This document shows positions 42,666 through 52,706 of a stretch of 64,000 nucleotides of DNA, one piece after another (within the stretch, counting starts at the first letter, position 1; each line of letters starts with the position of its first letter). This DNA comes from an uncultured bacterium (GTDB lineage: Bacteria > UBP4 > UBA4092), in assembly GCA_964644695.1 (NCBI GenBank), contig CAZXWN010000003.1:186001-250000 (forward strand), read 5' to 3'. Position numbers and translations under genes: made by a program. The notes below the pieces were generated by a model. It ran no database searches, had not been told where the DNA came from, and worked only from the letters and a program-made list of their open reading frames with translations.

Positions 42666-44324
42666 ATGGTTGCTAATAGTAATGAGAATAATACAGATAA
42701 AGGGAATGCAGCTTGGCTATGGCCAATCGGTTTGGTCTTTATTGCATTTATTGTATTAGGTTTTCAGTTAGGCCAATTACCCTTATTAGACCGCGATGAG
42801 ACCCGGTACACCTGGATGGCGAAGGTGATGTTGGAAAAAAGCGATTGGGTGGTCACCTGGTTAAATCATCAACCCCATTTGGCAAAGCCGCCTTTATTTG
42901 TCTGGTTATTAACCGGTGTTTTTAAAGTATTTGGTATTTCAGCCTGGTCAGCTCGATTGGTTCCATTAGCGGCTGGTGTCGGAACGGTGTTACTGACCTA
43001 TGCGGCAGGGACATTGCTTTGGAATCGGAGAACGGGCTTTATGGCAGGACTGATTTTAATATTCAGTCCATTATTCTGGGGATTATCCCGATTTGTTGTC
43101 ACCGATATGACTCTGACACTTTGGACAACCTTAGGGATTGTCAGTTTTCTGTATGCCATTCATCGGCAGCAATACAATCTTTGTTATCTGGCGTATGCCG
43201 CATGGGGGTTGGCTTTTTTGACCAAAGGTCCGGTCGGAGTGGCAATTCCACTTTTCATTATTATTGCCTATATGGTGAGGTTGGGTATTTGGCGTCAATG
43301 GCGATTATATAAGCCTTTTACCGGTTTATTGGTTTTCCTTGCGGTGGCGATTCCGTGGTACATTCTGGTTGAATTCAGAATCCCCGGATATTTGAAATAT
43401 TTCTTTATAGAAGAAAACCTGCTTCGTTTTGCAACGAAGATGCACAAGCGATATGAACCCTTCTGGTTCTTTGTACCCGTCGTGATATTAGGGATGTTCC
43501 CCTGGACATTGTTATTGTGGCAGGCCATTCGACCCAAAGACGGAAAAACCTGGCTGCAGCATTTACTTCAACCCACTCTGTTTCTATGCCTGTTCTGGTT
43601 TGGTGTGGGATTTGTTTTGTTTTCTATGTCTGGCTCAAAATTACCGACTTACATCCTTCCTTATTTGATACCCTTGGCATTACTCCTTGGCGCTGTCATA
43701 GATCAGGGATGGTCGGGAAGAAAAATATCCTATTGGGGAATTATCAGTATATGCCTGGTCGTATCTGTGGGTTTATTGGCGGCAGGCTATCTGATTCCCG
43801 TCGCAAAATTAGGAAAAAATGCCGCGAATACTGTCAGTTGGCCTATGACTCCAGAAGCCGTGATATTAGGGGTTATGGGGGTGTTTCTGAGTGTATTGGT
43901 CTATATTCGGAAATCTCACTGGGGTGTTCTGGTTATGGCGGTGGGGATATTCCTTTTGATAGTTCATGCGGCACTGCTTGATGAGGGAATGAAGTTTGCA
44001 CAAAGTAATTCGGCTCGGAAAACGGGAGCCTATCTTCGCTCAACCCTAAAAAGAGGTGATACGATTCTGGTTTATCATCCTCACCGATGGTCTATGTCTG
44101 TGGAAGTTCCCTCAATTTATCCTGTCACTTATGAACCAGACCTTTTTGTGATTAATAGTCAGTTAAGGTCCATTCATGGCCGGGTTTTTGTCTGGTTACG
44201 AAAACCGAAAGATTTATCTGATTTGAACCGGATATATGACGGTCCACTGACGACTCTCGTACAGGAAGGCAACCAGCTGTTAGTCATGAAACCGGCGGTG
44301 TACTCTCAGGATTTGACAAACTAA
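42666..44324 (+). CDS. ArnT-like GT-C glycosyltransferase
   Basis: LDRDETRY, KPPLFVW, AFLTKGPVG and SKLPTYILP; many TM helices. Confidence 0.88.
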   Translation: MVANSNENNTDKGNAAWLWPIGLVFIAFIVLGFQLGQLPLLDRDETRYTWMAKVMLEKSDWVVTWLNHQPHLAKPPLFVWLLTGVFKVFGISAWSARLVPLAAGVGTVLLTYAAGTLLWNRRTGFMAGLILIFSPLFWGLSRFVVTDMTLTLWTTLGIVSFLYAIHRQQYNLCYLAYAAWGLAFLTKGPVGVAIPLFIIIAYMVRLGIWRQWRLYKPFTGLLVFLAVAIPWYILVEFRIPGYLKYFFIEENLLRFATKMHKRYEPFWFFVPVVILGMFPWTLLLWQAIRPKDGKTWLQHLLQPTLFLCLFWFGVGFVLFSMSGSKLPTYILPYLIPLALLLGAVIDQGWSGRKISYWGIISICLVVSVGLLAAGYLIPVAKLGKNAANTVSWPMTPEAVILGVMGVFLSVLVYIRKSHWGVLVMAVGIFLLIVHAALLDEGMKFAQSNSARKTGAYLRSTLKRGDTILVYHPHRWSMSVEVPSIYPVTYEPDLFVINSQLRSIHGRVFVWLRKPKDLSDLNRIYDGPLTTLVQEGNQLLVMKPAVYSQDLTN

Positions 44325-44384
44325 CTCCCCGAGATGGGTAATGAGTAATCCAGAGTGGGAGAATTCTTGTATATAATTAAAGAT

Positions 44385-45221
44385 ATGAATAAGAAAAATA
44401 AAATGTATTTTTTCAGGGTAGGGCTTTTTTTATCGGTGTTATTGCTATGCATATTTCCCGCTATCGCAGAAACCCTTTCAAATGACATTGGTAAATATTA
44501 TGAATCTGAAAAATTGCCTTACCGGGTCAGTATTTTCCCCATCTTTAATGCGGCCGATGCGGATTTTACCTTTGTTAAAGACAATTCGGTAAAAAATGGC
44601 TATGTTGCCAGGCTGGATGCCCGAACCAGCGGTTTGTTAAAAGCTCTTCCTTTTGGACAGGTGCGGCAGGTCCTGACTTCCCATATGATTCTTTCTCCAG
44701 ACCATAAACGGTTGATTTCGCGTCGGTTTGAAAATGTCATTTATCGTAATGGTCGTGAATCCCGCCGGATCATCTCTGAATTTGATTATCAGAAAAAGAC
44801 CTCATCATGGACCAAATACAAAGAAGGAAAACTAAACAGTCAGGGAACGAAAGAGTTTCCCAAAGAGAAGTACTATGACGATCCGCTATGTGCCTTTTAT
44901 AATCTTCGATTTGGAGTCTATGGAGATTTTGAGAAGGGTAAAAAGATGACAGTCAGTGTGTTACCGCAAAATAAGGAAAAAACAATCACCTTAAATTTTG
45001 CTTCTCAGAAAGAACTCAATGAACGGAAACGGACCGAGAGAGAGTATGCGGCCCGGGAATACATGGTCATTGTGAATGCCTCGGATGAAGTGTTTCAGAA
45101 TCGTTCCGGAAAAATTGAGATTTGGTTTTCCAAGGATAGAATTCCACTGGAGGCCTCTGTTCGAGGTGTCTTGTATGTGGGAAATGTCCGGGGATATTTA
45201 CAGCAGGATAAATTAAAATAA
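44385..45221 (+). CDS. DUF3108-like secreted beta-sheet protein
   Basis: Signal peptide; EKLPYRVS, DPLCAFYNLR and IEIWFSKDRIP. Confidence 0.7.
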   Translation: MNKKNKMYFFRVGLFLSVLLLCIFPAIAETLSNDIGKYYESEKLPYRVSIFPIFNAADADFTFVKDNSVKNGYVARLDARTSGLLKALPFGQVRQVLTSHMILSPDHKRLISRRFENVIYRNGRESRRIISEFDYQKKTSSWTKYKEGKLNSQGTKEFPKEKYYDDPLCAFYNLRFGVYGDFEKGKKMTVSVLPQNKEKTITLNFASQKELNERKRTEREYAAREYMVIVNASDEVFQNRSGKIEIWFSKDRIPLEASVRGVLYVGNVRGYLQQDKLK

Positions 45222-45303
45222 TTTTTTCACCTCTTTTTTGCCCCTCCAGCTTCAGTTAAAACTACTACTTTGTAATATCTTTCTTGTATCTTCTCTTCGA
45301 AGC

Positions 45304-45336
45304 ATCCACGGACTTGCTCGGAATAGCTCCGTGGAT
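45304..45336. repeat. 33-bp REP-like palindrome, copy 4
   Basis: ATCCACGGA-CTTGCTCGGAATAGC-TCCGTGGAT; stem extends with AAGC/GCTT. Confidence 0.8.
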
Positions 45337-45447
45337 GCTTTGATATCCAATGAGAGTTGTATTCATTCCATTCTTATATTGTATTGTTGCTTTGGAAGGG
45401 TTGTGGAAAATGAGATTTGTGCAATCGGGTTATTTTTATAATAATAA

Positions 45448-45477
45448 TTGACACTTTCGTTGGAAAATGATTATACT
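45448..45477 (+). promoter_or_regulatory. sigma70-type promoter of pilin-like gene 1
   Basis: TTGACA-N18-TATACT. Confidence 0.55.
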
Positions 45478-45529
45478 TTAAGCGTTAATCGTATTGGTGT
45501 AAGTTTTGATGAGAACGGAGGTGACTTTT

Positions 45530-46120
45530 GTGAAAAAAGGTTTTACGTTGATTGAATTATTGATCGTCGTCGCAATCATTGCAATTTTGGCAGCGATTGC
45601 CATTCCTAATTTCCTGGCTGCTCAAGTCCGAGCCAAAGTTTCCCGAGTAAAAGGTGAAATGGCATCATTGAATACAGCAATGGAAAGTTATTTTGTTGAT
45701 AACAATGCTTATCCAGGATGTGTCGTGGGTTATCCTGGTGTTGCAGCTGCAATGTACATTCCTGACAGCATTTCTACTCCTATTTCTTATATTTCCAGTA
45801 ACGCGATAAATGATCCTTTCCGAGCCGCTGCTGCACAGCCGCCGTATACCCGGTATCGTTATTTACACCCTCGGAGCTTATATGATCCGGCAACTCAGCA
45901 GAGTGTAATTGATACCTATGAGTCCATTTATGGACAGTGGCGTATTTCTTCTTCCGGACCGGACAGAACTGCAGGACCGTTCAGCTATATCATGGTGGGT
46001 GGAAGTGCCGTTTGGAACACAATGCCATTATATGATCCGACCAATGGTACTGTATCTGATGGTGATATCATCCGAAGTCAGATGAGTGCTGATGGACAGT
46101 ATCCATTCTTGGTTAAGTAA
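45530..46120 (+). CDS. prepilin-type N-terminal cleavage/methylation protein (GspG/pilin-like) 1
   Basis: GGAGGTGA SD plus GTG; KKG|FTLIELLIVVAIIAILAAIAIPNF; C-terminal YDPTNGTVSDGDI. Confidence 0.92.
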   Translation: MKKGFTLIELLIVVAIIAILAAIAIPNFLAAQVRAKVSRVKGEMASLNTAMESYFVDNNAYPGCVVGYPGVAAAMYIPDSISTPISYISSNAINDPFRAAAAQPPYTRYRYLHPRSLYDPATQQSVIDTYESIYGQWRISSSGPDRTAGPFSYIMVGGSAVWNTMPLYDPTNGTVSDGDIIRSQMSADGQYPFLVK

Positions 46121-46166
46121 TTGTGTAATAGTACGGATAGAAAATTATTGTGAATCAAATATGTTG

Positions 46167-46208
46167 ATTTAAACGGTTTTCTGTGTTTTTTCGGGAAACC
46201 GTTTAAAT
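46167..46208. terminator. stem-loop after pilin-like gene 1
   Basis: ATTTAAACGGTTT / AAACCGTTTAAAT. Confidence 0.6.
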
Positions 46209-46254
46209 TGTATTAAATTAATTTCCAGTACTTTATTTTATTTCTAAAAATCAC

Positions 46255-46283
46255 TTGACGATTTTTGTCTACCGTATTAGTAT
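46255..46283 (+). promoter_or_regulatory. sigma70-type promoter of pilin-like gene 2
   Basis: TTGACG-N17-TAGTAT; same hexamers at 47283-47311. Confidence 0.75.
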
Positions 46284-46289
46284 TTCACT

Positions 46290-46564
46290 AGCAAATAATA
46301 TGTCTGAGATGAAAACGCTTTGATAAAGACAATAGAAGTTGGGAGGTGAGAGTTTTAAGCTTCAAACAAAGGGATGTTTTATGGAGGATTGTAACACTGG
46401 GCCCGATGAGAATTATCTATTATTCGAGTCGAAAATAATGGCAATCGTTTATAGGGCAGAACTTATTTGAATAAAGTCTTTGTTAAGTAAACCGTTATGA
46501 GAAATATTTGTATAAATAAAGTGTTAGCCCAGTAAATCGTCACAAATATATGAGGAATTTTATA
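46290..46564 (+). promoter_or_regulatory. conserved structured 5' leader, copy 1
   Basis: Aligns with 47317-47603; ACTGGGC/GCCCAGT long-range pair; compensatory substitutions. Confidence 0.65.
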
Positions 46565-47197
46565 ATGAAGTCTCGTGTTGTTAAAGGTTTTACATTAATT
46601 GAATTATTGATTGTCGTCGCTATTATCGCAATTTTGGCTGCTATAGCCATCCCCAACTTCCTGGCTGCCCAAGTCCGAGCCAAAATCTCTCGTAGTAAAG
46701 GTGAATTACGGACTATTGCAACAGGCTTAGAATCTTATTATGTGGATAACAATGTTTATCCGAATGATGGAACAGAAGCCTGGGTAACTGTTTCTCCAGA
46801 ACCGACTCAAAAGTATTGGTATGTTCCAAATTCATTAACAACTCCAATATCCTATGTAACTAACGCCAGTGCTATGAAAGATCCATTCCGTGGAACTCGT
46901 TCCAATGGCGATCCTGAATATACTCGTTATCGTTACAGCAGATTAGGTGCGGGTTCAGTCATCGGTGGTTTACAACAATCAGCTCCTTCTGCCTTCGCAA
47001 ATTATAGCGATGCTTATGGTGATTGGCGTTTGGTAGGTCTTGGTCCAGATCAGGCATATAGTCCCGATCAATATACTCCAAGAGCAACTCCATGGGGTTC
47101 TTATGATGTTGTTGTCGCGTATGACCCAACCAATGGAACAGTATCCTATGGTGATTTAATTCGTTCTTCGAAATGTTCTGATGGATATACTAGATAA
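46565..47197 (+). CDS. prepilin-type N-terminal cleavage/methylation protein (GspG/pilin-like) 2
   Basis: KG|FTLIELLIVVAIIAILAAIAIPNF; GPD; YDPTNGTVSYGDL. Confidence 0.92.
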   Translation: MKSRVVKGFTLIELLIVVAIIAILAAIAIPNFLAAQVRAKISRSKGELRTIATGLESYYVDNNVYPNDGTEAWVTVSPEPTQKYWYVPNSLTTPISYVTNASAMKDPFRGTRSNGDPEYTRYRYSRLGAGSVIGGLQQSAPSAFANYSDAYGDWRLVGLGPDQAYSPDQYTPRATPWGSYDVVVAYDPTNGTVSYGDLIRSSKCSDGYTR

Positions 47198-47217
47198 TAT
47201 TTAGAAAATATTTCTTT

Positions 47218-47252
47218 AAAAGCAGGGGCGCTGAAGCGCCCCTGCTTTTTTT
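47218..47252 (+). terminator. intrinsic terminator
   Basis: AAAAGCAGGGGCGC / GCGCCCCTGCTTTT plus T-tract. Confidence 0.88.
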
Positions 47253-47282
47253 ATAGGGTAAGCAATATTTAACAATAAAATG

Positions 47283-47311
47283 TTGACGATAAATGTAAAT
47301 GGGCTTAGTAT
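47283..47311 (+). promoter_or_regulatory. sigma70-type promoter of pilin-like gene 3
   Basis: TTGACG-N17-TAGTAT. Confidence 0.75.
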
Positions 47312-47316
47312 GGCAC

Positions 47317-47603
47317 TATCAAATACCAGGTTTGAGATTAAAATGATTTGATATAAACTGAGAATATAAGGAGGTGAGGGTTACTGACTTCAAATAAAGG
47401 GATGTTTTATGGAGGATTGTAACACTGGGCCCGGTGAAAATTGTAAATTATTCGAACCGGAAATAATGGCAATCATTTGTAGGGCAGAACTTGTTTGAAC
47501 AAAGTCTTTGTTAATTAAACCGTTATGAGAACCTGTTTTTATTCTTAATTGTATTAATAAAGTGTTAGCCCAGTAAATTGTGCATTTTATGAGGTGCATT
47601 TAT
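47317..47603 (+). promoter_or_regulatory. conserved structured 5' leader, copy 2
   Basis: Aligns with 46290-46564. Confidence 0.65.
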
Positions 47604-48212
47604 ATGAAGTCTCGTATGCAAAAAGGTTTTACCCTGATTGAATTATTAATCGTCGTTGCTATTATTGCCATTTTGGCGGCTATAGCCATCCCGAACTTCC
47701 TGGCTGCTCAGACGAGAGCTAAAATTTCACGAGCCAAAAGTGAGTTAAGAACCTTGGCAACCGCGCTTGAATCTTACTATGTTGATAATACTGCGTATCC
47801 TGATGATGTTGATCCTCAGCTTTGGCCGTGGTACCTTCCCTCTGTTGTTTCTACACCAATTGCCTACATTTCCTCAGGATTGGTTAGTGATCCCTTCCGT
47901 TTAAGTATCCCCTCTGCGATTCCGGGAACTCCGGGGGTCCGGTATCGGTATGTAAATTATGATGCAGAATTGAAAGGACACTATACCTCACAGGCGGAAT
48001 CGGCGTTCCCCCATCCGGGTGATACCGCAAATGTCCAAGCTGGGATTCGTAAATATGGTGTCTGGCGGTTGACTTCCGCAGGACCTGATCGGAATGCTTC
48101 TCCTTTTGGAACCGATTTCTTTAATGATATCCGTGTATATGACCCGACGAATGGTACCATTTCAAATGGTGACATTATTCGAGGTGCTAATGGCGAAGTA
48201 ACGATTGAGTAG
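47604..48212 (+). CDS. prepilin-type N-terminal cleavage/methylation protein (GspG/pilin-like) 3
   Basis: KG|FTLIELLIVVAIIAILAAIAIPNF; SAGPD; YDPTNGTISNGDI. Confidence 0.92.
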   Translation: MKSRMQKGFTLIELLIVVAIIAILAAIAIPNFLAAQTRAKISRAKSELRTLATALESYYVDNTAYPDDVDPQLWPWYLPSVVSTPIAYISSGLVSDPFRLSIPSAIPGTPGVRYRYVNYDAELKGHYTSQAESAFPHPGDTANVQAGIRKYGVWRLTSAGPDRNASPFGTDFFNDIRVYDPTNGTISNGDIIRGANGEVTIE

Positions 48213-48231
48213 TATTTAGTTAGACAATGAG

Positions 48232-48271
48232 GCGATAGCGCACACCAAAGGTATGCGCTATCGTTTTTTTT
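48232..48271 (+). terminator. intrinsic terminator
   Basis: CGATAGCGCA..ACC / GGT..TGCGCTATCG plus T8. Confidence 0.85.
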
Positions 48272-48475
48272 GGGAAGAAAATTGTTCCCTAAATGGATGT
48301 TAATTTATTTTTTGGAACTTACATGGAATGTAAGTAAAGAGTGTGACCTGAGTGGAGATCTTATATATGCATCTGCCGTCCACTTTTTTGAAGAGAACTA
48401 ACTATTTATAAATCAAATGCCTAACAACAATACTGTTGCAGAAATTACCAGCCTGTTCATATTCGAAAAAAGATA

Positions 48476-48565
48476 TTGACAGAAATGTCAGAAACAGATA
48501 TATTTCACACATCGGCAAAATTGAGGGCCTAAGGAGGTGAATCCATAAATTGGATGTGCCGATGT
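48476..48565 (+). promoter_or_regulatory. promoter plus 5' hairpin carrying AAGGAGGTGA, copy 1
   Basis: TTGACA-N17-TATATT; CATCGGCA/TGCCGATG outer stem and ATCCA/TGGAT inner stem. Confidence 0.7.
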
Positions 48566-48604
48566 TCGTATAATGTTTTAAATTTCTAATTATTGGAGAC
48601 CAAT

Positions 48605-50395
48605 ATGAAAAAAATTATAGTTTTATTTGCAATGCTTTTGCTGGCGTTTTCGCTGTCAAATGCTAAAAACCCGGTTTTAGTGGCGGCTGATTCGACGGGT
48701 GATTATGTCAATATCCAGGATGCAATCAAGTCTTGGTGTGTGGGTGGTGCAAATGCCTCTGAAACCGCACCTTTCACGATTAATATCAAGCCTGGGACCT
48801 ATGATGAAGTATTGACTTTAAATGATGCTTCAACCGGTTTTGGTAATATTGCTGGAAATCTTATTATTCAGTCCTCTGATTCCACGGCTAAACCCATCAT
48901 CAAACTTAAAAGAAATCCAGATACAGCCACTTCTGCTGGAAATTATGATGGACTTTGGATTTATCAGTCCACATATGATGTTTCATTCTATAACTTAGTC
49001 TTTTGTCCTTCCACAACCGTAAATGGGGGTGGGGTTATTGATGATGACATGCTCAAAATCGATGAAAATGGACCTAATGCTGTTGCAAACTGGATTAGTT
49101 TTTACAACTGCGTGATTACCGACATTAATACTACGGGTAATCCAATGGTTCTGACTAAAGATGATGCATTGAATCCTCCTCCAACCCGTGGTTCACAAAT
49201 GGGAGCAGGCGATTTGTTATTGAAGTCTTGGGGTGACACTGGTGAAAACATCAATGTTCGTTTAGTGAACTGTTTATTCTATGGTGGAGCATCCTATGAT
49301 GCACAGTTGATGACTGATGGTACACCTGGTGAACAAATCTATATCAAAGATTCTATGTTTGCTTATGGTGGATATGGTAACCTCAACATTGCTGGTACCA
49401 AGGCTGGTGTTGTTACTATTACCGGTACTAAACCTGCAAAAGATGGTGATTGGAAGAACTGCTCTTTCATATATAATCCTCGCGGTGCTTTCCACGCCTT
49501 GTATTTCAATGCAAGTTTAGCCAGTGCCACTACAGGTGGTGCTAACATGTACAAGTACAATGTTAGCAATACTATTGTTAGTGCCATGGATACCTCTTCT
49601 TTTGCGTCACGAGCTATCTCTGGCGGTGCTTATTCCAATATTAATATTAGCGACTCAATTATGCAGTCTCTAACTGTTAATGTGGTCTATGGCTCCTTTG
49701 GTATTCAGTCTGTTGTTCGTTGTACATTTAATACTGCAAGTGCAACAAACTTCTGGTATGGTGTAGGTGGAAACAGAAGCTATACACCCGATACAACCTT
49801 ATTTGAAACAGGTAAGATTGTTATTCGGGATAGTATCATCAGTGGTCCTGGTACAAAATTTGCTTTGGTGAATACTTCAAGCTTCTGGCCAACCGGTGGA
49901 GTGGATATTAACAATACTGCTTTACCCACCTTGGGTGCTAACTCAATCACTGACATAATGACCTCTACTGACAGTGCTTCGTTTATTTTGGGGTCAAATA
50001 TTGTGACTGCTGATCCAATGTATGCTTCCTTTAGTCCGACCTCTACCGCATTTTATGATGTAACCAACGCCTCTTATGCTGGTAAAGCCAGTGATGGTGG
50101 TGTCTTGGTTGGTGGTGCGAACTTTATATCTGCGGTATATCTGATTGGACCAGCCAATGTAACTTTAGGCGCAACAGATACCATCGTTGCCAATAATGGT
50201 GTGGCACCGTATACCTGGCAGAGCAGTAACACTACGGTTGGTACTATTACCGGAACCGGTGCTACTGTAACCTTCAATGCACTGGCTCTTGGTTCTACCG
50301 ACGTGACCGTGACAGACGGTGCGGGTGGTACGAGTAAGATAACGGTTAATGTTATCGCTACGTCTGCACCTTTAGCCTCTGAAATGATGGAATAA
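48605..50395 (+). CDS. secreted pectin-lyase-like (parallel beta-helix) protein with C-terminal Ig-like module
   Basis: Signal peptide ending SNA; VAADSTGDY..IQDAI...IKPGTYDE pectinesterase-like cap; GVAPYTWQSSNTTVGTI Ig-like tail. Confidence 0.8.
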   Translation: MKKIIVLFAMLLLAFSLSNAKNPVLVAADSTGDYVNIQDAIKSWCVGGANASETAPFTINIKPGTYDEVLTLNDASTGFGNIAGNLIIQSSDSTAKPIIKLKRNPDTATSAGNYDGLWIYQSTYDVSFYNLVFCPSTTVNGGGVIDDDMLKIDENGPNAVANWISFYNCVITDINTTGNPMVLTKDDALNPPPTRGSQMGAGDLLLKSWGDTGENINVRLVNCLFYGGASYDAQLMTDGTPGEQIYIKDSMFAYGGYGNLNIAGTKAGVVTITGTKPAKDGDWKNCSFIYNPRGAFHALYFNASLASATTGGANMYKYNVSNTIVSAMDTSSFASRAISGGAYSNINISDSIMQSLTVNVVYGSFGIQSVVRCTFNTASATNFWYGVGGNRSYTPDTTLFETGKIVIRDSIISGPGTKFALVNTSSFWPTGGVDINNTALPTLGANSITDIMTSTDSASFILGSNIVTADPMYASFSPTSTAFYDVTNASYAGKASDGGVLVGGANFISAVYLIGPANVTLGATDTIVANNGVAPYTWQSSNTTVGTITGTGATVTFNALALGSTDVTVTDGAGGTSKITVNVIATSAPLASEMME

Positions 50396-50448
50396 CATCC
50401 GTTCTTCGGATTATTCGAACCCGCTCAGGCAACTGGGCGGGTTTTTTT
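50132..50448 (+). repeat. ~317-bp near-identical repeat (C-terminal module plus terminator), copy 1
   Basis: 50246-50403 is identical to 52351-52508. Confidence 0.92.
50418..50448 (+). terminator. intrinsic terminator
   Basis: AACCCGCTCAG / CTGGGCGGGTT plus T-tract. Confidence 0.85.
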
Positions 50449-50607
50449 ATTTAAACTTCGTGTGACTCATATGCTGCGTTTCTGAATTACTATTGTTTTT
50501 GTTTGGTATAAGCGATATCTTATGGTTACTTTAAACAATTATGATTTTCCTGTCTGGATTTAAAATGATAATTACATTATTGGGTTGATTGTTTAACAAA
50601 ATAGATA

Positions 50608-50695
50608 TTGACAGACCTTTAAGAAACGGATATATTTCACTCATCGGCAAGTTTATGTATAAAGGAGGTGAATCCAATGGATGGATATGCCGATG
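50608..50695 (+). promoter_or_regulatory. promoter plus 5' hairpin carrying AAGGAGGTGA, copy 2
   Basis: TTGACA-N17-TATATT; CATCGGCA/TGCCGATG and ATCCA/TGGAT stems. Confidence 0.7.
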
Positions 50696-50736
50696 TAATA
50701 TCCTATGAAATTCTTTGCAAATTACTGGAGGACAAC

Positions 50737-52500
50737 ATGAAAAAAATTATAGTATTATTGACTACCTTTGTCTTGGCTTTCTCTTTAGCTAATGCAAAAA
50801 ATCCCGTTGTCGTTGCTGCAGACTCTACGGGTGACTTTACTTCTATTCAGGCAGCCATTAGTTCATGGTGCGCTGGTGGTGCTAATGCTTCTGCAACGGC
50901 TCCATTCGTTATTCAAATCAAAGGTGGCACTTACAAAGAAAAGCTTTCTTTGAATGATGCACGAATTGGTTTAGGTGATATTGTCGGCGATATTAAAATT
51001 ATGGCCTATGACACAACCAATATCCCCATCATTAAGATCCCTGTTAGTGATACAACCATGTCCAATCCATCAACAGCTACACGGCAAGGTCTTATGATTC
51101 ATCAAAACGTTGCAAACGTTGAGTTAAGAGACTTGGTATTTACTTATGCTCTGGAAACTTCAACTGAGTATGGCGTTTACAATGGAATGTTGAATGGTAA
51201 CCTCATTAAAATTGATGAAAACAGTGCCAATGTATCTATTAACACTGTAAAAATGATTAATTGTGTGGTTACTGCCGTGTCAGCCGCTGGAGAACCTTTG
51301 GTTAAATCCAAAACTGAGGCTCTCTCAGGAAACTTCTATTCTCTGAAGACTACCGGGTTAGCGGGTGGTGTCATGGTTTCTCACTATAATGACCTTGGTG
51401 AGTCTCTGTGCAGTGAGTTTATTAATTGTACTTTCTATGGTTCTGCCAGCTATGGTCTTCGGACCCGGTTAGAAGGTAGTGTTCCAGAAAGAGCCCTGAT
51501 TAAGGATTGCTTATTCAAAGACTTTGGTTATTATCCCGCTGAATTTGATGGCAATAACTCTCAGGGAACAGTCGTTATCACTGGTACTAAACCCGCAAAA
51601 GATGGCGATTTGTATAACAGCACAGTCATGCTGAATACAGGTATTGCTGCTGGTGGTGGTCACTTTGTTTATTCAGCAACCACTGGAGCCGTCCTCGACC
51701 TTTCCAATATGATTTGCCATACTAGAAATGTCAGTGCTCGTATGATTTCTATTGGCAACACTTCTGCTAAGATCACGGATTCCATCTTCTTTGCTACCAA
51801 TTATGGTATCGTCCACAATAACGCTGCAGGTCGGTATTTAGATATTCAGCGTTGCACCTTTGTTACAGATACCCAGGCAGCTTCTTTCTTCCTGCCTTCT
51901 GGCACGCAAAATGGTGGATTTGGTGAAACTTCAACTCATGGTGCAATCAGCTTTGTTGATACTATCATTGCTGGTCGTGGCAATAAGTTCAATGGATTAA
52001 CTGCTATTGACGGGAAAGTATCTTTAAGTAATGTACTATTACCGACTTTGGGTGATTACAGTGTATATTCATTCACTACAACTGGCATAGCTTTAGTCCA
52101 GAATTATTACACTGATGACCCGGGTTTTGCTTCAGCCGATCCGACCAGTGTTGATTTCTTTGACGTCACCAATACTGTTTTGATAGGTAAATCCAGCACC
52201 GGTACCGTTCTCGCTGGTGGAGCAAACTTCAAGTCCGCGGTATATCTGATTGGCCCAACCAATGTAACTTTAGGCGCAACAGATACTATTGTCGCCAACA
52301 ATGGTGTGGCACCGTATACCTGGCAGAGCAGTAACACTACCGTGGGTACGATTACCGGAACCGGTGCTACTGTAACCTTCAATGCACTGGCTCTTGGTTC
52401 TACCGACGTGACCGTGACAGACGGTGCGGGTGGTACGAGTAAGATAACGGTTAATGTTATCGCTACGTCTGCACCTTTAGCCTCTGAAATGATGGAATAA
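50737..52500 (+). CDS. secreted pectin-lyase-like protein with C-terminal Ig-like module (paralogue of 48605..50395)
   Basis: GGAGG SD; MKKII signal peptide; VAADSTGDF..IQAAI; ITGTKPAKDGD; near-identical C-terminus ending TSAPLASEMME. Confidence 0.8.
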   Translation: MKKIIVLLTTFVLAFSLANAKNPVVVAADSTGDFTSIQAAISSWCAGGANASATAPFVIQIKGGTYKEKLSLNDARIGLGDIVGDIKIMAYDTTNIPIIKIPVSDTTMSNPSTATRQGLMIHQNVANVELRDLVFTYALETSTEYGVYNGMLNGNLIKIDENSANVSINTVKMINCVVTAVSAAGEPLVKSKTEALSGNFYSLKTTGLAGGVMVSHYNDLGESLCSEFINCTFYGSASYGLRTRLEGSVPERALIKDCLFKDFGYYPAEFDGNNSQGTVVITGTKPAKDGDLYNSTVMLNTGIAAGGGHFVYSATTGAVLDLSNMICHTRNVSARMISIGNTSAKITDSIFFATNYGIVHNNAAGRYLDIQRCTFVTDTQAASFFLPSGTQNGGFGETSTHGAISFVDTIIAGRGNKFNGLTAIDGKVSLSNVLLPTLGDYSVYSFTTTGIALVQNYYTDDPGFASADPTSVDFFDVTNTVLIGKSSTGTVLAGGANFKSAVYLIGPTNVTLGATDTIVANNGVAPYTWQSSNTTVGTITGTGATVTFNALALGSTDVTVTDGAGGTSKITVNVIATSAPLASEMME

Positions 52501-52552
52501 CATCCGTTTTTCGGATTATTCAAACCCGCTCAGGAAACTGAGCGGGTTTTTT
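52237..52552 (+). repeat. ~317-bp near-identical repeat, copy 2
   Basis: Matches 50132-50448. Confidence 0.92.
52522..52552 (+). terminator. intrinsic terminator
   Basis: AAACCCGCTCAG / CTGAGCGGGTTT plus T-tract. Confidence 0.88.
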
Positions 52553-52706
52553 CTTTTTGTGTAATAGACCTGCTACAAATCGTTTGCATAAATCAGTTGA
52601 CAAAAGCATCTATTTCGGGAAATAAGTATATGTAGAGGGTTCGTTAATGCGGGGAGTGCAGGTGGTAATTCCCCGTTAATAAAAGGCTCGTATGGGAGGG
52701 GACCCT

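Follow-up and report, generated by a model that had tools for sequence, protein, structure and literature searches.

Unevenly conserved leaders upstream of two tandem type IV pilin genes in an uncultured bacterium: a candidate lineage-specific 5' untranslated region

Leaders that control translation are known to combine a ribosome-binding site with its anti-site and anti-anti-site, and repeats of the Correia or enterobacterial repetitive intergenic consensus (ERIC) type are known as intergenic insertion elements that are transcribed. Among pilin genes, the closest described cases are Cdi-2-4, a class II cyclic di-GMP (c-di-GMP) riboswitch that precedes pilA1 in Clostridioides difficile (PMC6366702), and the small RNA (sRNA) Arp, which is reported to repress pilin translation in Acinetobacter baumannii (bioRxiv 10.1101/2025.07.19.665661). 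The locus described here lies in a 64,000-nt stretch of DNA, called the window (contig CAZXWN010000003.1 of assembly GCA_964644695.1, positions 186,001 to 250,000), from an uncultured bacterium (GTDB lineage Bacteria; UBP4; UBA4092) of sludge whose genome, G000, is 98.67% complete. Three genes for type IV pilin/GspG-like prepilins stand there in tandem (pilins 1 to 3, Table 1), and the second and third are each preceded by a long leader (leaders 2 and 3) that is clearly preserved between the two copies. The leader core may be a constrained cis-acting 5' untranslated region (5' UTR), a reading that we regard as having an about even chance of being correct.

Aligned over their whole length, leaders 2 and 3 are 86–88% identical, and this agreement is spread very unevenly. 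Within the core, 130 of 144 positions are identical over 46360–46503 (with a 13-nt indel) and 30 of 33 over 46504–46536. Further upstream, both promoter-like hexamers are unchanged (6/6 at -35 and 6/6 at -10) around a spacer that agrees at 8 of 17 positions, and the first 52 nt of the leader agree at 33. The Shine-Dalgarno motif GGAGGTGA, which in both leaders lies far from the start codon and is here called the orphan site, is retained at 8/8 positions, followed by 10 nt, read as a loop, with 4/10 identical. In the final 28 nt before the ATG, 14 of 26 positions agree, the working site ATGAGG being kept between the copies. Four-fold sites in the first 62 codons agree at 11 of 23, against 90% in the core, which bears out the original prediction for this stretch, made from the sequence alone, that the leaders are more conserved than the variable parts of the coding regions. 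The promoter spacer, the leader flanks (54–63%) and the four-fold sites are close to saturation. The core is preserved far better than these adjacent, presumably neutral sites (Fisher p 7e-6 to 6e-5 for the core against each flank class), and because the conservation is so uneven, the similarity is not simply that of a recent whole-gene duplication. An identical block of 38 nt is present in 2/2 copies, where 0 would be expected by chance. A pattern search recovered every motif that had been pointed out beforehand at its place, including TTGACG-N17-TAGTAT before both leaders, the orphan site at 46342 and 47370, a mini open reading frame (mini-ORF; MFYGGL-stop) that is identical in the two leaders, and the TAACAC and GTGTTA sequences in both; likewise, pilin 1 was correctly described as lacking the leader, its GGAGGTGA standing at 45517, only 5 nt before the GTG.

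The pilin genes themselves are older than the leader. In the variable domain, pilin 3 shows 69% identity to its ortholog in G001, a genome of the same family (sister genus), against 40% to pilin 2, and pilin 2 shows 51% to its G001 counterpart; in a phylogenetic tree, pilin 3 groups with the G001 gene (support 93/85). From these identities and the tree, pilins 2 and 3 are therefore older than the genus split, and the leader is younger. The matching pilin clusters in G001 and G004 (same class) show a promoter, a short leader, and (A)GGAGGTG immediately 5' of the ATG. Since all the relatives' orthologs have such short leaders, the long leader is read as a lineage-specific insertion of about 215 nt that probably separated the ancestral ribosome-binding site from the start codon. 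The original prediction had allowed that the similarity might reflect no more than recent duplication should covariation prove insignificant; covariation is indeed not significant (see below), but the contrast between core and neutral sites and the age of the paralogs argue against recent duplication as the sole origin. Two other sources of the insert were considered and rejected. Aligned locally with the coding regions of the three pilins, it scores no better than shuffled sequences (z -1.4 to 2.0), contrary to what is expected of a decayed pilin 5' end. Many copies with terminal inverted repeats would mark a miniature mobile element (MITE, Correia or ERIC type), whereas the insert has two copies only and no such repeats in common.

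All three pilin proteins match PF07963 and TIGR02532 above the cut-offs and begin with a prepilin cleavage/methylation motif and a hydrophobic helix. They belong to a large repertoire: G000 has about 35 genes with a GFTLIELL-type prepilin N-terminus (29 matches in one search), several of them in tandem arrays (contig C2), and four class-level relatives have 30–56 prepilin matches per genome. By aspartyl-tRNA synthetase, the nearest relative with a name is bacterium UBP4_UBA6127 (81% identity), from a candidate phylum of which very few genomes exist, in line with the four class-level relatives available for comparison. A strict GGAGGT/AGGAGG motif lies 13–18 nt 5' of the start in 10 of the 35 pilin-like genes of G000, against -223 and -235 for pilins 2 and 3, and the start-proximal sites of these two genes are weaker (GAGGAA and GAGGTG). 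The conserved promoter and the presence of its own terminator at each of pilins 2 and 3 indicate that these are separate transcription units, each with a putative leader, and no conserved promoter lies nearer to either ATG than TTGACG-N17-TAGTAT. The promoter match of pilin 1 is stronger, and its leader measures only about 46 nt.

Table 1. Features of the pilin 1 to pilin 3 region, in positions of the window.
Feature	Position	Strand	Remarks
Pilin 1, short-leader comparison case	45530..46120	+	GTG start at 45530
Promoter-like site of pilin 2, TTGACG-N17-TAGTAT	46255..46283	+	Hexamers same in both copies, spacer diverged
Leader 2, putative 5' UTR of pilin 2	46290..46564	+	275 nt, A+T rich, C-poor (29 C)
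Orphan Shine-Dalgarno motif GGAGGTGA, leader 2	46342..46349	+	223 nt 5' of the start codon
Conserved core, leader 2	46360..46536	+	90–91% identical to 47388–47577
Mini-ORF MFYGGL-stop, leader 2 / leader 3	46374..46394 / 47402..47422	+	Identical in both
29-codon upstream ORF (MEDCNTGP...)	46381..46470	+	AAAGGG 7 nt upstream; uninterrupted and equally long in leaders 2 and 3
TAACAC	starting at 46392 and 47420	+	
ACTGGGC, 5' arm of proposed long-range helix	46396..46402 (leader 3: 47424)	+	
GTGTTA	starting at 46521 and 47562	+	
GCCCAGT, 3' arm of proposed long-range helix	46527..46533 (leader 3: 47568)	+	
Working ribosome-binding site GAGGAA, pilin 2	46551..46556	+	
Pilin 2, type IV pilin/GspG-like prepilin	46565..47197	+	210 amino acids; family matches
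Intrinsic terminator of pilin 2	47222..47252	+	GC-rich hairpin then T run; sequence, hairpin in Rfam-scan alignments
Promoter-like site of pilin 3, TTGACG-N17-TAGTAT	47283..47311	+	Pattern match
Leader 3, putative 5' UTR of pilin 3	47318..47603	+	286 nt
Orphan GGAGGTGA, leader 3	47370..47377	+	
Conserved core, leader 3	47388..47577	+	
Extra 13 nt, leader 3 only	47532..47544	+	Sole length difference between the cores
Pilin 3, prepilin	47604..48212	+	202 amino acids; family matches
Intrinsic terminator of pilin 3	48232..48271	+	GC-rich hairpin then T run; sequence, hairpin in Rfam-scan alignments

Transcription of leader 2 is indicated by a contig of the RNA-library run X17, which spans 46437–46665 and so passes from the leader into the pilin 2 coding region. 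Both leaders are poor in C (29–31 C per 275–286 nt), and, from what is established for rut sites, a C-poor untranslated leader would disfavour the loading of Rho. Four sequencing runs were compared; none covers the stretch 47282–47509 of leader 3, and uncovered parts prove nothing. The stretch is represented in roughly 16 studies. Related strains in the sludge metagenomes of other studies carry leader 2 at about 97% identity, with 9, 9 and 6 variant letters over the leader in contigs of runs X6 and X12. In a contig of the DNA run X6, 46239 is connected directly with 46337, so that the promoter and the initial 47 nt of leader 2 are skipped or replaced, and a further contig connects 46068 with 46583; such joints could reflect strain variation or chimeras formed with other paralogs. 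Leader 2 is also spanned, from the -35 box to just past the core, by a perfect 9-nt inverted repeat, TGACGATTT/AAATCGTCA (46256–46264/46534–46542), which is not found in leader 3 and is probably due to chance.

The history favoured here would begin after the split from the sister genus, when about 215 nt would have been inserted between the ancestral ribosome-binding site (GGAGGTGA) and the start codon. The old site would thereby have been orphaned some 50 nt past the transcription start, and a weaker, new ribosome-binding site would have arisen beside the ATG. Together with the first four codons (MKSR), the new 5' region would then have been copied between the old pilin paralogs, probably by gene conversion. 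The promoter hexamers, the orphan site and the core of about 180 nt have since remained almost the same, while the intervening stretches have drifted to near saturation. In such a leader, the core is proposed to act in cis as RNA, setting the translation or the stability of both pilins alike. In leader 2 the orphan site is pairable with CUUC at 46360–46363, across the diverged loop, and the CUUCA at the start of the core may pair either with this site or with the AUGAAGU start region; in such a competition the orphan site could serve as a decoy, leaving the true start accessible, and Hfq-dependent sRNAs or another protein could provide the input.

Leader copies in G000 number two, by BLAST, by pattern search and with a covariance model. 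Beyond this genome, BLAST of leader 2 against 60 other genomes returned only two chance matches of 27–29 nt, an nhmmer profile of both leaders had no match in 29 pilin loci of relatives, and the covariance model of the leaders, run on 20 other genomes, gave a best foreign match of 25 bits, with most helices missing, 5' of an ORF read by eye as NuoF-like. A metagenome scan for the variable domain of pilin 2 gave 141 pattern matches with no relative among them. An 18-mer from the core was found at 5 loci in metagenome contigs, where the similarity was limited to the surroundings of the word, and at none in viral contigs; a 22-mer had no match in genome contigs, and neither plasmid nor phage records matched the 275-nt leader in blastn. 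In agreement with the earlier failure to match the leader to c-di-GMP-I, c-di-GMP-II or the S-adenosylmethionine (SAM)-I class, an Rfam cmscan of 44000–51000 at E up to 10 yielded 16 weak matches. No riboswitch family is among them, c-di-GMP-I (RF01051), c-di-GMP-II (RF01786) and SAM-I included, and on the plus strand none falls within leader 2 or leader 3. The sole overlap with a leader is a minus-strand SraG match (19.8 bits, against a gathering score of 50) that touches 47318–47336, and the entire window had no match in Rfam 15 at gathering scores. The leader is outside every known riboswitch or leader family.

The RNAalifold consensus of the two leaders contains a hairpin in which the orphan GGAGGU pairs with CUUC, a long-range ACUGGGC/GCCCAGU helix, and two inner hairpins, CGAU/GUCG and AUAAUGG/CCGUUAU, the latter extended by a 12-pair stem. 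Eight of its 60 pairs are variable (four double-sided and four one-sided changes), and none is broken. The two compensatory exchanges on which the original prediction had relied are present as letters (A46465/T46472 vs G47493/C47500, and A46406/T46429 vs G47434/C47457), and the arms of the long-range helix lie where it had placed them; neither the significance of the exchanges nor the helix in leader 3 withstood further analysis, as set out below. GGA motifs, which that prediction had compared with CsrA sites, are present in the leaders, with a predicted loop or stem placement that differs between the copies. A CsrA gene is missing from G000 (PF02599, 0 matches; the control search was positive in 3 of 14 reference genomes). 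As a separate observation, the extra 13 nt of leader 3 contain a CCU whose pairing with the orphan ribosome-binding site is predicted at a probability of about 0.99 and refolds the whole prediction relative to leader 2.

Several results weigh against a constrained, RNA-acting core. RNAalifold rewards compensatory changes: at least four double changes arose in 23% of 300 column-shuffled alignments folded alike, so that the covariation is not significant, and in another shuffle test 24 of 500 reached the observed value, with only two sequences aligned. Against dinucleotide-preserving shuffles, the z-scores of single sequences are weak and do not agree between the copies (-0.6 and -1.8 over the two whole leaders, -2.6 and -1.2 over the cores). 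The consensus energy of the alignment fold is better than that of shuffles, but shows no preference for the plus strand (z -2.85 plus, -3.57 minus; core alone, -1.62 plus and -2.22 minus). The closing helix has an ensemble probability, from the partition function, of 0.25–0.32 in leader 2 and 0.0 in leader 3. The predicted partners of both ribosome-binding sites differ between the leaders, and the complementarity between CUUCA and the start region amounts to 12 of 13 in leader 3 and about 6 pairs (read by eye) in leader 2. With non-significant covariation, discordant folds and no strand preference, a conserved fold is therefore not shown, and the evidence for an RNA fold is weak. No homologs of the leader were found for comparison; in a small metatranscriptome (X7), contigs cover the three coding regions but not the leaders, though this is not evidence of absence; and constraint could be mimicked by a more recent conversion patch limited to the core.

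That last point is the heart of the main rival, which holds that the leader is a neutral insert whose core was re-homogenised by a later, shorter conversion tract between the tandem paralogs, in a concerted evolution that requires no function. Gene conversion between tandem paralogs is clear in this very locus: genes 4 and 5 (48605–50395 and 50737–52500) are about 45% identical in mid-gene and 90–100% identical over the last 250–300 nt and the terminators (regions compared, 50146–50445 vs 52250–52560; 90–95% from 50146 and 100% over 50266–50385). The leader has in any case moved between old paralogs, and the absence of a significant structure signal or strand preference fits a conversion without function. 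Against this, the conserved patches coincide with functional units, in that the hexamers (6/6), the orphan site (8/8), ATGAGG, and the stem rather than its loop are kept, with 40–54% identity in the loops and spacers between them. The core is also 90% and not 100% identical, so any conversion would be old, and several separate tracts would be needed. On balance we consider this rival unlikely, though well short of implausible. Still less probable is an element acting as DNA: a segment that inverts or moves, a gene for an antisense or small RNA, or sites downstream of the promoter to which a regulator binds. The minus-strand fold signal is equally strong, as would fit palindromic DNA, short inverted repeats are present, and the insert occupies the same relative site in both genes; yet some 180 nt of continuous conservation far exceeds the length of an operator, the longer inverted repeats are not common to both copies, and there are only two genomic copies, with no further one in the contig, plasmid and phage searches. 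Strand-changing joints were absent from the four runs, although contigs drop rare variants, and no conserved minus-strand promoter was found.

Translation within the leader offers another route, by which ribosomes on the 29-codon ORF or on the MFYGGL mini-ORF would remodel the leader and so set pilin translation. Neither ORF is interrupted or differs in length between the two leaders, AAAGGG stands 7 nt before the ATG of the longer one, and this ORF crosses the 5' arm of the long-range helix. Its 11 differences are nevertheless distributed 5/4/2 over the codon positions and change 8 codons, 2 others being silent, a non-coding substitution pattern; at this base composition the estimated chance of an open frame of 28 codons is roughly 6% for each frame, and the two copies do not count as independent. 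No ribosome-binding site stands at a usable distance from the mini-ORF, and a Pfam search of the leader ORFs gave no match. The substitution pattern and the lack of a terminator after the 29-codon ORF are unlike a leader-peptide or upstream-ORF attenuator. A 69-codon minus-strand ORF is open in leader 3 only. It is unlikely that the leader is protein-coding, and control by an upstream ORF is accordingly given a low probability. A ligand-binding riboswitch, in which the domain closed by ACUGGGC/GCCCAGU would be an aptamer (e.g., for a cyclic dinucleotide) gating pilin translation, is the most improbable of the explanations weighed here. The leader is long, its consensus fold is multi-branched with the closing helix 17 and 14 nt 5' of the ribosome-binding site, alternative TAACAC/GTGTTA pairings exist, and G000 has 13 GGDEF-domain matches, with Cdi-2-4 as a precedent (PMC6366702). 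However, neither leader has an Rfam match on the plus strand even at E up to 10, leader 3 lacks a predicted closing helix, nothing resembles a terminator-like expression platform, and the covariation is not significant. Occurring as only two copies in one species, the leader is unlike a riboswitch class. The interpretation in the original prediction thus holds in part: the leader is real, stands between a conserved promoter and the start codon and matches no Rfam family, but its reading as a riboswitch-like switch is not supported. The leader is at present not classifiable as a riboswitch or a structured RNA.

Possible trans-acting partners of a constrained leader core were also surveyed. Hfq is encoded in G000 and is a possible trans factor, and c-di-GMP signalling exists in this organism, as follows from its GGDEF-domain matches, so that inputs to the leader from sRNAs or from c-di-GMP are possible. 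Searches for a complementary partner elsewhere in the genome gave chance-level matches only, the best antisense match common to both leaders being 14 nt (E ~2). A more ambitious form of the favoured reading, which we think doubtful, would make the core a young, lineage-specific regulatory RNA domain that senses a ligand, a protein or an Hfq-dependent sRNA and switches both pilins jointly, as CUUCA shifts between the decoy site and the true start. If that were true, a new cis-regulatory RNA would have been caught arising and spreading between paralogs via gene conversion. Even a core that is functional in the broader sense would show the birth of a long regulatory 5' UTR within one lineage, in a candidate phylum without cultured members and among dozens of pilin-like genes, and would provide a handle on how such bacteria choose among their many pilins. 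If the core is only a conversion patch, it serves as a warning that a non-coding stretch which outconserves the coding region between tandem paralogs is not in itself evidence of a structured RNA.

Genes 4 and 5, which encode large secreted-protein paralogs, have a conserved promoter and leader of their own in common (48476–48604 and 50610–50736), with an orphan AAGGAGGTGAATCC that lies inside an invariant 8-bp stem, CATCGGCA/TGCCGATG (48510–48517/48557–48564 and 50642–50649/50688–50695). After this orphan site there is an in-frame ATG at 50677 in gene 5 and none in gene 4. Orphaned strong ribosome-binding sites in leaders may thus be a theme of the locus.

Compared with the systems named at the outset, the pilin leaders resemble each in some respects. 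They share with Cdi-2-4, which decides the expression of a major pilin (PMC6366702), a long leader before a type IV pilin gene in a host that has c-di-GMP enzymes, but differ in having no match to a c-di-GMP class and no terminator/antiterminator platform, and in being confined to two copies in one species. With the Arp system, as reported (bioRxiv 10.1101/2025.07.19.665661), they would share post-transcriptional control at the leader of a pilin mRNA, as proposed here, and Hfq is encoded; the organisms are unrelated, and no complementary partner beyond chance is seen in the present case. In contrast to Correia and ERIC elements, the insert is found as two copies only, in the same context, and without shared terminal inverted repeats or a target duplication, yet like them it is a short, hairpin-rich insert (180–215 nt) that would be co-transcribed from its place between promoter and start codon. 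Set beside leaders of the anti-site and anti-anti-site type, they differ in that only leader 3 has a strong alternative pairing and the fold predictions disagree between the copies, but the same ingredients are present: an upstream GGAGGU, a CUUC(A) that can pair with it, and an AUGAAGU start region pairable with that same segment.

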